From: a virus | Lineage: Duplodnaviria; Heunggongvirae; Uroviricota; Caudoviricetes | IMG/VR virus record: IMGVR_UViG_2802429246_000008 | Length of the DNA: 5,211 nucleotides | Direction: 5' to 3' (one strand) | Part shown: positions 1 through 5,211 of the stretch, piece by piece | How the letters are laid out: each line of letters opens with the position of its first letter | How positions within the stretch are numbered: position 1 is the first letter of the stretch | Made by a program: the position numbers and the translations under genes | The notes under the pieces: generated by a model | Seen by the model: the letters and a program-made list of their open reading frames with translations, nothing else | Databases searched by the model: none | Told to the model about the DNA's origin: nothing

Positions 1-4
1 GTAC

Positions 5-583
5 ATGATAAAATTTCTTGAATTGATATCAATGATTTATATCATTTCAACACTCATGTATTATGTTTTCAGGAAATTAAATCATGCTAATCATATGGCA
101 ATTCATGATCCACTAACGAATACATACAATAGAAGATACTTTATTGACTCATTGAAGAATATATCAAAACACCATGATTTCTCAGTAATAATGTTAGATA
201 TTGACAATTTCAAAAGCATCAATGACAAATGGGGGCATCATATGGGTGATCAAGTCATAGTAATGGTTACCAGAATAATAAAAAAATCCATCAGGAAAGA
301 GGATATATTAGGGCGCTTAGGCGGTGAGGAGTTCGGTATTATCATTAAAGGTAATACTCAAAAGCTCTTGCTATCAATTGCAGAGCGAATCAGAAAAAAC
401 ATTGAAGAGCAATGCTCGGAAAAATTATTATCGCATGGACCTGAGAAAATAACTGTCAGTATTGGTTGTTTTACTTCAAAAGAGAATAATCTCAGTCCAT
501 CTGAAATGTTAGTCAATGCCGATAAAGCGTTATATCAAGCCAAAAGAACCGGAAAAAACAAGGTGATAATTCACTCAAAATAA
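5..583 (+). CDS. GGDEF-domain diguanylate cyclase, predicted catalytically active; possibly 5'-partial because the frame is open to the window edge
   Basis: Translation carries the GGDEF-family motifs in order: DPLTNTYNRRYF, LDIDNFKSINDKWGHHMGDQV (metal/GTP-binding Asp and Asn, with Asp at the base-specifying GD position), an RKED match to the RxxD I-site a few residues before RLGGEEFGIII (canonical GGEEF), and C-terminal ADKALYQAKRTGKNKV. One N-terminal hydrophobic stretch (LELISMIYIISTLMYYVF) looks like a TM helix. The codon at 2-4 (tac) is in frame with no stop upstream, so ATG at 5 may not be the true start. Sampled 60-nt lines are about 23-30% G+C, far lower than the adjacent phage genes. 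Confidence 0.85.
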   Translation: MIKFLELISMIYIISTLMYYVFRKLNHANHMAIHDPLTNTYNRRYFIDSLKNISKHHDFSVIMLDIDNFKSINDKWGHHMGDQVIVMVTRIIKKSIRKEDILGRLGGEEFGIIIKGNTQKLLLSIAERIRKNIEEQCSEKLLSHGPEKITVSIGCFTSKENNLSPSEMLVNADKALYQAKRTGKNKVIIHSK

Positions 584-611
584 ACACCTTTTTAAAATAC
601 AGCCCCAATAA

Positions 612-646
612 ACTGCAGAATATTATCCCATATAATATCCTGCAGT
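612..646. terminator. Inverted repeat (15-bp stem, 1 mismatch, 5-nt loop) between convergent genes; candidate bidirectional terminator
   Basis: 612-626 actgcagaatattat pairs with 632-646 ataatatcctgcagt (single A/C mismatch at 619/639), loop cccat. It lies 29 nt after the GGDEF stop (581-583) and 11 nt after the tfa stop (657-659, minus strand). No strong U-tract on either side, so terminator function is uncertain. Confidence 0.4.
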
Positions 647-656
647 TCGTAATGCA

Positions 657-1241
657 CTATTCGATAATGGGTACTGTTGGCCATTCAATATCCGGTGCAG
701 TTGATGTATCAACACGGTTCAGCAACACCCGATACTTTTTCCAGGCTTCCAGCAATGAGGTTTCTTCCTCCGTTGCGATTTCCAGATCTACAGCATCCTG
801 AAGTGGCGCAATATGCTCACTGGCTACCTGCATCAGGCTGTTTTTTGTTTCTTCCGCCTCTCGGATCCGGAACAGTTTTTCTGCTTCTGCATCTTTCACC
901 CAGGCTGTGCCGTTCCACTTCTGAAACTCCCCTTCCGGCGATAACCAGGTAACATTTTCCGGTAACGGACCGAGTTCAGAAATAAATAACGCGTCCCCTG
1001 ACGCTACGTCATAAACCGTTTTACCCCGATGGTCTTCAACGAGATGCCACGATGCCTTATCACTGTTGAAAACAGCCACAAAGCCAGCAGGAATATCTGG
1101 TGGTGCAATATCGGTACTGTTTGCTGGCAGACCTGTATGAGGCGGAATATATGCGTCACCTTCACCAATAAATTCATTAGTTCCGGCCAGCAGATTATAA
1201 ATTTTTATGGTCCGTGGTTGTTCACTCATTCTGAATGCCAT
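657..1241 (-). CDS. tfa: Tail fibre assembly protein (lambda Tfa-like chaperone)
   Basis: 194-aa product [51 protein letters not shown]... matches my recollection of phage lambda Tfa nearly along its whole length. ATG at 1239-1241 overlaps the stf stop (TAATG arrangement), with a GAGG Shine-Dalgarno about 8 nt upstream inside the stf 3' end. Position immediately downstream of stf matches lambda synteny. Confidence 0.9.
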
Positions 1242-4201
1242 TATGCAAGCCTCACAATATAGTTAAATGCGATGTTTTTGACGGTGTTTTCCGCGTTACC
1301 AGCAGCGTTAACGGTGATGGTGTGTCCATGTGAACCAATCGCAACGGAGTGCGTATGAGCACCAATACCGACAGTATGCGCGTGTGCACCTGCAGATGCT
1401 GCTGTGCCGGACAGTGAATGGCTATGATTACCATCTGTACTGGTATTCGCTAACCACCCCGTAGACATACCTACTGAGCCTTGTACACCCCAGGTATTTT
1501 GACCTGAGCTTGTATAACCATATTGATAAGTATCTTTAAAAACACTGGGGTTAAATCGACGGCCATCTCTATGGCTGTGATTACCAGCTGCATTCGTGCT
1601 GCCACTTAAACTATGGGTATGCGCACCAGTGTTATTCGTGGATTTAGTGCCGTAATCAAACGACGATGTGGTTTTCGTCCCCAAATCCGTACTGGATGCG
1701 CTGGCGCTGTGGGTATGCGATTTAATGCCGTCCTGTTCCTGAGACAATACGGCCCGACCACTGGCAGGTTTGCCCTTAATCGTCCAGCCACGCATATCAG
1801 GGATCACGCCTGACGGATAAGCGGCTGCAAGTTTCGGGTATGCAGATTTGTCAAAAGTCTGCCCCTGCATCAGGGCATAGCCAGACGGAACGGTATCTGA
1901 TGGCCACGGGATTGGTGCGCCAGGCGGATAAAACTGCTCTGATGGCGTATAGAGTGAATAAACTGTACCGTCCGTTAACCCTTCCGGCTTATTAGCAGAA
2001 TATGCTGGTGACGTATGAATCGTCACGCTGGCATTACTGGTATAATCCCATTGAATATTTACACCAGTCGCATAATTTCCGATTGCAACGTAAATATCGT
2101 AAGTATCACCAGATGTATTGACCCAGGCAAAATTTGTAAACCCTGTCGATGTGCGCTGCCATAAAGCACCAGTAATCCCCTTCGGATTACCATTACCTGC
2201 ACGTAAAACAAGTTCAGATATACCTGCCTGTTGAGGTGACCCCACGTTAAATCCAGCGCCACCAATCAACGTAATTGAAACAACAGAACTCGCCTGTGGC
2301 ATGGTTACCGTTGCTAATTTGAACCAACCAGCACCACCGCTGAATGACATTGTTGTTGAGTTAAGCGTACCAATATCTTTCGGCGTCAGTGTTATATCCG
2401 CTGAAAGCGCCTTACCATTCACCTTACGGGCAGAAGGTACCCGACCATTCGCATTGTCATTAGCTGCTTTCACTGCTTTCGGTGTCGCAGCAAGCGTTTC
2501 AGATGTGCTGTTGGTTGCACTACTGAGCTGGACAATTCCTTTTTGTGCTGTCGTAGCGTCCTGTGCGGTGTATTTCCCGTTAGCCAGGTCATACGCGGCC
2601 TTAACGGCTTTTGGCGTTGCCGCCTGTGACTCGGAAGTGCTGTTAGTCGCACTGCTGAGCTGAACTATCCCTTTCTGTGCTGTCGTTGCATCCTGTGCGG
2701 TGTATTTCCCGTTAGCCAGGTCATACGCGGCCTTAACGGCTTTTGGCGTTGCCGCCTGTGACTCGGAAGTGCTGTTGGTCGCACTGCTGAGCTGTACTAT
2801 CCCCTTTTTCGTCGTGCTCGCATCCTCAAGCGCCACGGCGGATGCAATATCCTCTGCCCGTTTTGCTGCTGTCTCGGCGCGCGTTGCCGCGGATTCCGCC
2901 GTACTTTTGCTCTGTGCTGCCGCTGCCGCACTGCCAGCAGCCTCTGTCGCCTTCGTGGATGCCGTCGTGGCGCTGCCCCTCGCTGCTGACGCCTGTCTGG
3001 TCGCCTCATCTTTTGAAGCAGACGCAGATGATGCCGATGACGCCGCCGAACTGGCGGACGATGCGGCAGCCGTTTTTGAGGATTCTGCGCTGGTTTCCGA
3101 CGCTTTCGCGTTCGTTTCGGATGTCTTCGCTGCGGAAGCAGACCTCGCTGCTGCGCTGGCCTGTTCAGTGGCTTCGCCAGCCTTCGTTGTGGCTGTTGAA
3201 GCAGACGATGCGGCACTTTCTGCCGACTTTCCGGCAGCGGTGGCACTGGCTGAGGCCTGCCCGGCACTTGTTGACGCGGCGCTGGCAGATGATGCAGCCG
3301 CTGTTTTTGAGCCTGCCGCAGCCGAGGCGCTCTGTCCCGCTGCCGTTTCAGAAGACCTGGCGTTCGTCTCGGACGTTTTTGCCGCCTTCGCGGAATTTCC
3401 TGCCGCCGTTGCCGAGGAAGCGGCACTACTGGCGCTTGATGATGCGTTCGTTTCTGATGATTTTGCCGCCTCTTTTGAAGCCGACGCATCCCGGGCTGAG
3501 GTGGCAGCTTCTGACGCCTTCGTGGTCGCGGCGGATGCAGAAGTAGCTGCTGATTGTTGTGACGCTGCCGCATTCGTTTCTGACGTTTTCGCCGCAGCGG
3601 CACTGGTAGCTGCCGCGCTTTTTGAGGACTCTGCAGCAGCAGCACTTTTCGATGCTTCACTGGCCTTTGTTGATGCCGTTCCTGCGCTGGAAGATGCTGA
3701 CTGAGCAGATGATGCAGCCTGTCCGGCTGACGTGCTGGCGGCACGAGCTGAGCCTGCAGCATCGGTTGCATGAGTTGCCGCCTCACTGGCAGATGTGCTG
3801 GCATCACTGGCTGACTTCTTCGCGGCTGCCATGTTCTGTGCCACTGCGGACGCGTTACGCGCCACCTCTTCCACCATCAGTTCAAAACGTCGCAGAGCCT
3901 CCGGACGGGCATCATCCTCCGTCATGGCACCGAGAAAATCATTCAGCGTACCGGGTCGGGAATCTTCATACACGGTGATGGTCCCGGCATGTGACGGCGG
4001 GAATCCTTCCACCAACAGAATAACGCTGTACTGACCGTACTCAACGTCCATGCTGTAACGCCCGGCTTCATCCGGATTTTCTGAGGCCAGCGTGTTCACC
4101 ACCACCGCTGTACTGTTACGTTTTGCTTTCAGCTGGATTGTGCAGTTCTGTACCGGTTTTCCTGTGCCGTCTTTCAGTACACCTGAAATCTTTACTGCCA
4201 T
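1241..4201 (-). CDS. stf: Side tail fibre protein (lambda Stf-like), intact 986-aa reading frame
   Basis: N-terminus [26 protein letters not shown]...[11 protein letters not shown]...[15 protein letters not shown]...LNDFL...MTEDDARPE matches recalled lambda Stf. Then a long Ala/Ser/Thr-rich region, 44-aa [15 protein letters not shown]... repeats, and a C-terminal region with multiple HxH motifs (HTHS, HSHS, HAHT, HTHS, HGHT) ending ...[25 protein letters not shown] place the start at ATG 4199-4201 (MAVKISG) with a GGGGTG Shine-Dalgarno (plus 4205-4210) 5 nt upstream; the ORF track's earlier start at 4207 is a GTG inside that SD. Stop TAA at 1241-1243. Confidence 0.9.
2466..2807 (-). repeat. 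Intragenic tandem repeat in stf: two near-identical 132-bp units (2544-2675, 2676-2807) plus an upstream diverged partial copy (2466-2543)
   Basis: Direct alignment of 2544-2675 with 2676-2807 shows about 4-6 mismatches in 132 bp, including an 86-bp perfectly identical block (2559-2644 vs 2691-2776). Both encode the identical 44-aa unit [45 protein letters not shown] third copy keeps about 26 aa of protein identity ([27 protein letters not shown]) but is substantially diverged at DNA level. Confidence 0.9.
2808..3860 (-). repeat. GC-rich low-complexity tract encoding the Ala/Ser/Thr-rich shaft of Stf (degenerate short repeats such as AAKTSETNA / [10 protein letters not shown])
   Basis: Translated minus-strand frame is dominated by A/S/T/E/K with recurring AKTSETNA-like units. 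The nucleotide sequence is GC-rich and biased, which explains the long stop-free ORFs in other frames on both strands. Boundaries are approximate. Confidence 0.7.
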
Positions 4202-4212
4202 ATTCACCCCAC

Positions 4213-4239
4213 AAAAAAGCCCGCCTGAACCGGCGGGCT
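4213..4239 (-). terminator. Rho-independent terminator downstream of lom (minus-strand orientation)
   Basis: On the minus strand: AGCCCGCC-GGTTCA-GGCGGGCT followed by TTTTTTG (plus-strand A-run 4213-4218). GC-rich 7-8 bp stem and 6-nt loop, 26 nt after the lom stop and about 12 nt before the stf ATG. Confidence 0.6.
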
Positions 4240-4265: not shown

Positions 4266-4865
4266 TCAGAACTTATAACCGACACCCACGATGAAACCGT
4301 CAGTGCGCCAGTCGCCACTGCCGGAGCCTTCATAAGCAATATCAATGGCCACGGATTCGGTCGGGTTAAACTGCACGCCAGCTCCCCACGCCAGAGACGT
4401 GTTGCTGTGGCGACCGTCATCACTTCCGGTCAGCACGTCGTGCGTTTTCCCCTTGTTGTCAGTTACGCGGAGATAATCCCCGGAGAAAGTCGACACACGG
4501 CTGTAAGCCATACCCGCCATCGCATACGCGCTGAACCATTCATTCACGCGCACAGACGGCCCCACCATCACGCTGAACCAGCGGTTACGCACGGAATCTT
4601 CATGCCAGCGGGTATCGCTGTAACGGGTAAGCTGGCGATTCTTGTCTCCTGCATAGCTGAATGACGTCACCAGCCCCAGTGTGTCCGTAAACTCATAACG
4701 GTATTTCACGTTAATCCCGTTAAGATCATCGCTGCCGGGAACGTTCGTCGAGGCATGAAGATACCCCGCGCTCAGCGTGGACTGATGTTCAGATGCCCAT
4801 GCAGGCGCACCGGATACGGCCAGACAAATGGCTGCGGACAAAATTGCTGCACAAACTTTACGCAT
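4266..4865 (-). CDS. lom: Lom outer-membrane protein (Ail/Lom/PagC/OmpX family beta-barrel)
   Basis: 199-aa product with a Sec-type signal peptide ([24 protein letters not shown]) and C-terminal ...[24 protein letters not shown], which matches the C-terminus of lambda Lom as I recall it; internal GINVKYRYE and [10 protein letters not shown] blocks also match. Terminal Phe is typical of outer-membrane beta-barrels. GAGAGG Shine-Dalgarno at plus 4871-4876, 5 nt upstream of ATG 4863-4865. Position between J and stf matches lambda synteny. Confidence 0.9.
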
Positions 4866-4935: not shown

Positions 4936-5211
4936 TCAACGAATACTGATGCCGGAAGCAGCTTTTTTGGTCACAATCACCGTACAGTCGGTGATATTGC
5001 CTGCCCCCTGATTGCCTTTCTGGAAAATCTTAAACTCCAGAGTGACGCTACCACCACCACTAGGCATATCAATAACTGCACTGTAACTACCGGGAATGGC
5101 CCCTTTAGTTTCTCTGGATGCGATTAATACACCGTTTTTGCGAACTTCAAAACCATAACCCGTGTATCGCGTGCCTCCTGGGTTATTTCCGCTCCCCGGA
5201 TCGTCATACGC
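4936..5211 (-). CDS. J: C-terminal 91 codons of a tail tip / host-specificity protein (lambda J-like), 5' end outside the window
   Basis: Minus-strand frame is open from the window edge (5211) to TGA at 4936-4938, translating AYDDPGSGNNPGGTRYTGYGFEVRKNGVLIASRETKGAIPGSYSAVIDMPSGGGSVTLEFKIFQKGNQGAGNITDCTVIVTKKAASGISIR*. Assignment as J rests mainly on synteny (in lambda the order is J-lom-stf-tfa). I cannot verify the residue-level match to lambda J from memory. The ORF track omits it because there is no in-window Met start. Confidence 0.55.
   Translation of the reverse strand, partial: AYDDPGSGNNPGGTRYTGYGFEVRKNGVLIASRETKGAIPGSYSAVIDMPSGGGSVTLEFKIFQKGNQGAGNITDCTVIVTKKAASGISIR

Follow-up and report, generated by a model that had tools for sequence, protein, structure and literature searches.

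The gene analysed here encodes DgcX of Escherichia coli, a diguanylate cyclase (DGC) that was defined by Richter et al. 2014 (PMC4287979), with strain 55989 as one of the defining strains. In that work, dgcX had the highest expression among the E. coli DGC genes, the expression was RpoD- and RpoS-dependent, and a -412/+18 lacZ fusion was strongly active in K-12 (PMC4287979). The genetics of DgcX were tested in 2023 by Cimdins-Ahne et al. (PMC10459773): overexpression resulted in csgD-independent cellulose production, which was lost in the GGEAF and GGAAF mutants, and deletion of dgcX in Fec101 had a minor effect only on the rdar phenotype (PMC10459773). The published DgcX work cited here contains neither direct measurements of c-di-GMP nor in vitro activity data. 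Two K-12 paralogues, DgcT (YcdT) and CdgI (YeaI), share the MASE4-GGDEF architecture with DgcX, and the AT content of each of the three genes is high for E. coli. CdgI keeps the I-site only (PMC5635695), and dgcT is described in the literature as weakly expressed, versus very strong expression of dgcX.

Two further systems serve for comparison. PleD (1w25), a phosphorylation-activated response regulator, is soluble, whereas DgcX is membrane-anchored by MASE4. On the phage side, the lambda genes ea47, ea31 and ea59 and the morons lom, bor and sitABCD are, like dgcX, non-essential inserts convergent with the late operon.

The DNA under study (the window, 5211 bp in full) comprises a left open reading frame (ORF), a 73-bp spacer and then four minus-strand lambda-type tail genes. 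The left ORF (2-583, plus strand) is open at the 5' edge and corresponds to the 3' part of dgcX, codons 251-443 of 443 followed by the stop codon (581-583); codons 1-250 (~750 nt) are located beyond the window, and 43% of the gene is in view. The fragment is identical to residues 251-443 of the 55989 DgcX in 191 of 193 positions (99%), and the DNA is ~99% identical to 55989 across dgcX, the spacer and tfa. The two substitutions relative to 55989, T253I (ACA to ATA; window 8-10) and T440I (569-571), leave the catalytic motifs untouched; T440I is common to the window copy and strain 504838 (locus L001). The gene order in 55989 is J-lom-stf-tfa-[443-aa cyclase]-ybhB-bioA, and the ybhB-dgcX-tfa-stf-lom-J neighbourhood is alike in 55989, 504838 and 90-9281, with a stf allele beside dgcX in the window that differs from the one in 55989. 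The published dgcX::lacZ primers (-412/+18; Supplementary Table S3) match L001 exactly (13859-13875 and 14243-14264), and the dgcX ATG is therefore fixed at L001:14252. The RxxD (348-351) and GGEEF (357-361) numbering also agrees with that of DgcX from enteroaggregative and O104:H4 E. coli. Since the 55989 identity, the neighbours, the primers and the GGEEF numbering all agree, the window gene is dgcX as published in 2014. The preliminary description, which had been made from the window alone, named DgcX as a candidate identity; that suggestion was right (99% to the 55989 protein, same gene order, exact primer matches), and the observation, although correct, was already known.

The GGDEF catalytic domain spans positions 98-562 of the plus strand (fragment residues 33-187, equal to DgcX 283-437). 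In the Pfam search, PF00990 was matched with E = 1.3e-45 and 155.5 bits (cut-off 23.8) over profile positions 1-161 of 161, and the full-length homologue also matched TIGR00254 (1.1e-47). The A-site GGEEF, residues 357-361, was read directly at 320-334 (plus strand) and confirmed by the PleD alignment; its E359 and E360 are the positions changed in the published catalytic mutants (PMC10459773). Five residues upstream of the A-site, the I-site RxxD is present as R348-K-E-D351 (RKED; 293-304, plus strand, direct read) and aligns with R359xxD362 of PleD; this is a motif from which inhibition is predicted. In the phmmer alignment with PleD (1w25), D327/D329 (DID), K332, N335, H340, D344 and K442/R446 are all kept, and the A-site, metal-binding, guanine-binding and primary I-site residues of PleD thus all align with DgcX. 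The guanine-specifying Asp sits in the HHMGDQ motif of DgcX, opposite D344 of PleD. A Hypr (cGAMP-type) enzyme was ruled out because this GD position holds Asp, not Ser/Thr. The earlier claims of a complete GGDEF signature and of a non-Hypr enzyme are accordingly upheld, and the predicted active, product-inhibited cyclase is in keeping with the intact motifs and with the mutagenesis of E359/E360, which abolishes the cellulose phenotype (PMC10459773).

The full-length homologue is 1332 nt long and encodes 443 aa, with MASE4 (PF17158) at residues 40-274 (E = 1.9e-36) and GGDEF at 283-437. The initial ~25 residues of the window fragment are the end of MASE4 and the linker, so that on the window copy the MASE4 assignment concerns the final ~25 residues of the domain; an N-terminal membrane domain out of view, as had been suspected, is what the homologues have. 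Full-length identity to the K-12 paralogues is 35% for DgcT and 37% for CdgI. In contrast to these two, dgcX is accessory and prophage-borne, and its G+C content is 29.7% versus 38.5%. The G+C content is 32.1% in the dgcX part of the window and 29.7% in the whole gene, compared with 47.2% in tfa, 54.1% in stf and 55.5% in lom. The compositional contrast with the tail genes reported in the preliminary description is real, but the values quoted there (25-30% against 50-60%) were slightly too extreme at both ends.

The stop codons of dgcX and tfa are convergent and separated by an AT-rich spacer of 73 bp (584-656, sequence read), the distance noted before. The spacer was assigned to the dgcX module because the homology of other tfa genes begins only at ~658-679. 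Folding of the spacer gave an inverted repeat (stem-loop) at 611-647, a possible bidirectional terminator, with -26.6 kcal/mol on the minus strand (z = -5.2) and -16 kcal/mol on the plus strand (z = -5.6). Its stability is higher on the tfa strand, with UUUAUU directly behind the stem-loop, and the dgcX strand has no clear U-tract; a simple terminator scan did not call the spacer hairpin (611-647). At the other end of the gene, a TTGACA-17-TAGTAT motif 73 bp upstream of the dgcX ATG is a candidate promoter. The promoter and terminator calls come from consensus or folding scans, each of which is non-significant alone. With Rfam at gathering thresholds, no match was obtained in or around dgcX, and no riboswitch in its leader.

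The tail module follows on the minus strand. tfa (657-1241) encodes a tail fibre assembly protein of 194 aa (Pfam Caudo_TAP, 5.1e-45; PHROG 105), and stf (1241-4201) encodes a side tail fibre of 986 aa with Pfam phage_tail_N, three Phage_fiber_2 and Collar matches. The stf start was placed at the ATG at 4201; an in-frame GTG is present at 4207, and the gene is annotated with 2961 nt in the closest genome. lom (4266-4865) encodes an Ail/Lom outer-membrane protein (Pfam Ail_Lom, 2.4e-121), and the edge-cut 3' end of J (4936-5211), the tail tip gene, encodes the C-terminal receptor-binding domain (Ig_GpJ_C, 3e-12, and annotations).

Several further features were seen in these genes. The Phage_fiber_2 repeats of stf are encoded by 132-bp units in tandem (2.3 copies, 92% identity; window 2505-2809), ahead of which comes a long low-complexity stretch rich in Ala and Ser (stf residues ~130-460). 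Stf length varies across the dgcX-linked prophages, with 986 aa in the window, 1024 aa in 55989 and 1132 aa in 504838. Between lom and stf, a GC-rich hairpin with a T-run (window 4218-4239, minus strand) is terminator-like, and stf-tfa would therefore need read-through or a promoter of their own. The Rfam family IS009 (RF02111) matches window 700-898 on the minus strand, in the 3' half of the tfa coding strand, with 229 bits. RF02111 is an sRNA candidate that stems from an old screen of intergenic regions, and IS009 probably models tfa remnants of cryptic prophages, not an independent RNA.

The prophage boundaries were located by means of the att sites. In strain 504838 (L001), a lambda att core with one mismatch lies between ybhB and dgcX. 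The segment L001:13612-13860 aligns near-perfectly with lambda ~27.48-27.74 kb, which includes the sib/tI hairpin, the P arm and the core, and on the ybhB side of the core the bacterial B' arm is found, the whole being a textbook attR. Upstream of the window, a sib/P-arm block with the core GCTTTTTTATACTAA would be expected, followed by ybhB. In 55989, the exact 15-bp lambda core occurs once at the ybhC|int boundary (L004:13138) and once at the dgcX|ybhB boundary (L003:36847); the prophage between those cores is 45.7 kb, and dgcX is within it. The empty attB of K-12 is a ybhC-ybhB gap of 151 bp without dgcX, and in most genomes the homology to a ybhB-attR-dgcX query ends at the att core. At a second locus, beside uspF (the Rac site), dgcX again adjoins tfaR-stfR, and an exact copy of the 26-bp repeat bounding Rac in MG1655 sits between uspF and dgcX. 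Because the cores lie outside the gene, dgcX belongs to the phage side of attR, and it does so at two integration sites unrelated to each other. It is inside the att boundaries at both of them and should therefore be counted as prophage cargo (lysogenic conversion) and not as an orphan HGT gene. This placement differs from the published "specialized transduction" (Richter et al.) and "not part of a mobile element".

The insertion point was defined from both sides of the gene. Next to the attR block, the end of a 147-bp non-coding element (L001:13855-14003) folds into a stable hairpin (-22.8 kcal/mol), and a U-rich tract comes after it. This element is 88-93% conserved in more than 200 phage records (HK106, HK75, phi80, HK633 and Stx phages). 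In those phages it separates the tail-fibre genes from attP, and it may act as a second terminator behind sib/tI. Phage HK106 has the order int-attP-sib-147-bp element-tfa with no intervening gene, and its homology to L001 stops at ~L001:14003, directly past the hairpin. On the opposite side, other tfa genes are homologous from the tfa stop onwards. From these two breakpoints, the dgcX module is therefore ~1.65 kb long (L001:14004-15656) and comprises, besides the gene, 248 bp upstream, in which the TTGACA-17-TAGTAT motif lies, and the 73-bp stem-loop spacer. The module occupies the position of lambda ea47-ea31-ea59 in the same orientation, and dgcX is thus a b-region moron between the tfa stop and the terminator/sib/attP block. 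As in those lambda genes and morons, the G+C content of dgcX deviates, and a candidate promoter and hairpin of its own are present. Unlike the ea genes, to which it has no sequence similarity, dgcX carries a second-messenger synthase as cargo, and unlike the lambdoid morons it was seen in no isolated phage genome among the 50,697 deposited ones.

These results bear on the earlier proposal of horizontally acquired cargo at the b-region position, which holds: dgcX is absent from the K-12 attB, occurs in 14% of the genomes, and lies between tfa and sib/att. The preliminary description had left it to the att sites to decide whether the gene is inside the prophage, and it is, the cores being outside the gene. 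It had also considered a core chromosomal gene kept at the same locus by strains lacking the prophage; this was not what was found, as in most genomes the match to the ybhB-attR-dgcX query breaks off at the att core.

The distribution was determined in 5426 complete E. coli genomes, 770 of which (14%) contain window 1-656, 640 of them with at least 99% identity. Among the matches listed for window 1-656, most dgcX copies are annotated as intact. The ybhB-attR-dgcX junction was found in 590 complete genomes, the dgcX-tfa junction in at least 511, a colinear match of at least 80% of the window in 602, and the Rac-att junction with dgcX in 8. Other upstream contexts account for ~170 dgcX genomes, one of which has sitABCD-dgcX. 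No complete genome holds an identical copy of the whole window, and the best match (97.8%) is at attB in the O128:H27 strain 90-9281. In species-representative genomes, a close relative was found in E. coli only, with no donor lineage. A 2.5-kb contig of a Bacillota bacterium MAG (JAEWTL010000008.1) encodes a protein 99% identical to DgcX and is probably a misbinned E. coli contig.

Full dgcX gave 0 megablast matches in 50,697 deposited phage genomes, and tblastn of the same collection returned only distant GGDEF domains of less than 40% identity. In a few phage records, ON470595.1 (Escherichia phage vB_EcoS-683R6) and Bacillus phage SP-15 among them, diguanylate cyclases are annotated that share 36-37% identity with the GGDEF domain of DgcX; their GGDEF cargo is unrelated to dgcX. 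In PLSDB plasmids, no dgcX was found, and only ~100 bp from the start of the conserved 147-bp element were present in ~30 plasmids. IMG/VR contains 17 dgcX loci, mostly short prophage fragments of isolate genomes, which are uninformative on virion carriage.

Both dgcX prophages that were inspected are defective. In the 55989 prophage, the terminase large subunit gene and rusA are frameshifted. In the 504838 prophage, the integrase has been cut short by an IS3-family element, no immunity/replication (early) region is present, and IS66 has inserted near the lysis genes. Carriage of dgcX by a viable isolated phage was not seen in the 50,697 phage records or in these two prophages. The 14% frequency, the absence from sequenced phages and the decayed prophages point to spread by recombination at the tail-fibre end of cryptic prophages, or to vertical inheritance, and this suggests such a route in preference to active transduction. 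In strain CFSAN061763 (L005:5432-10666), a frameshifted dgcX lies directly downstream of sitABCD, an iron/manganese transporter, by uspF and a degraded tail-fibre region, and two accessory cargo modules are stacked there at one prophage end.

Two other accounts of dgcX were weighed. According to Richter et al. 2014, the gene would be host DNA just outside the prophage, hitchhiking by specialized transduction. Statements in the literature (PMC4287979; PMC10333796) favour this, and dgcX is indeed always directly beside lambdoid DNA, with varying upstream neighbours, but the att cores are outside dgcX at two different integration sites, and an intact lambda P arm and sib separate it from ybhB. 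Moreover, a bio-side transducing phage would hold host DNA beyond POB', not within, and the left breakpoint falls at the very point where a block conserved among free phages such as HK106 stops. For the present-day arrangement this account is contradicted, and we consider it quite improbable; an ancient capture of dgcX from an AT-rich donor may have occurred. Alternatively, dgcX could act for the phage, either instead of the host or in addition to it. After excision it would lie downstream of int-attP-sib, like the ea genes of lambda, and could be read from pL under N antitermination, or its c-di-GMP could lower superinfection, by way of matrix production or loss of flagella, or tune induction. 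The position and orientation identical to those of lambda ea47/ea31/ea59, together with GGDEF-only families in PHROGs and a few phage records, are consistent with such a role, against which stand the terminator hairpins of sib/tI and of the 147-bp element, both ahead of dgcX, the defective state of the inspected prophages and the absence of any PADLOC match. We regard this role as unlikely, and give the same low probability to the view, which position and orientation would merely allow, that dgcX is a true phage gene kept because c-di-GMP benefits the prophage. If it were true, the benefits could be a matrix-embedded lysogen, less superinfection or tuned induction, and an excised dgcX read from pL through int-attP-sib, as the ea genes of lambda are, would be a phage-controlled second-messenger switch.

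The remaining alternatives concern the protein and the copy at hand. DgcX is 37% identical to CdgI, has the MASE4-GGDEF architecture in common with it, and could, like this paralogue, be an inactive c-di-GMP receptor or scaffold; yet DgcX has GGEEF where CdgI has EGEVF, all PleD catalytic residues are kept, and the cellulose phenotype needs E359/E360, which makes an inactive DgcX extremely improbable. The window copy itself could be a pseudogene remnant disrupted upstream of position 1, given that the first 750 nt are beyond the window and that a frameshifted copy exists (L005, CFSAN061763). Against this, the visible 582 nt are intact and two residues away from functional copies, and most of the hits listed are annotated as intact; a disrupted window copy is therefore very improbable.

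The preferred reading, that dgcX encodes a MASE4-GGDEF c-di-GMP synthase and is carried as a moron of lambda-like prophages, is very probably correct as a full explanation. The identity, motifs, att placement and distribution that enter it come from the present analysis, and the expression and GGEEF-dependent phenotypes from the literature. In this reading, DgcX is a 443-aa inner-membrane protein with an N-terminal MASE4 sensor and a C-terminal GGDEF domain. The dimer is predicted to condense two GTP to c-di-GMP at GGEEF, c-di-GMP bound at the RxxD I-site would feed back on the enzyme, and signal input would occur via the MASE4 membrane domain. In the lysogen, dgcX would be read from its own strong sigma70/sigmaS-dependent promoter, and its transcription is expected to be independent of the late and early operons of the phage. 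The gene is placed within the prophage yet outside its operons, from which the sib hairpin and the hairpin of the 147-bp element, both upstream of dgcX, would insulate it. DgcX would then add to the c-di-GMP pool of the host and promote matrix production (cellulose; CsgD/curli in O104:H4), a form of lysogenic conversion. PADLOC-DB defence models matched 0 families at E <= 0.01, and PHROGs contained GGDEF-domain families only, with function uncharacterised there; a role in phage-host conflict, which the preliminary description had labelled as speculation, gained no support.

What the present analysis adds is the att-based placement of dgcX as a b-region moron, its exact insertion point and its frequency (14%, no free phage). 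In enteroaggregative, enterotoxigenic and O104:H4 E. coli, DgcX is known as an accessory factor, and it raises the c-di-GMP/biofilm potential of these bacteria.
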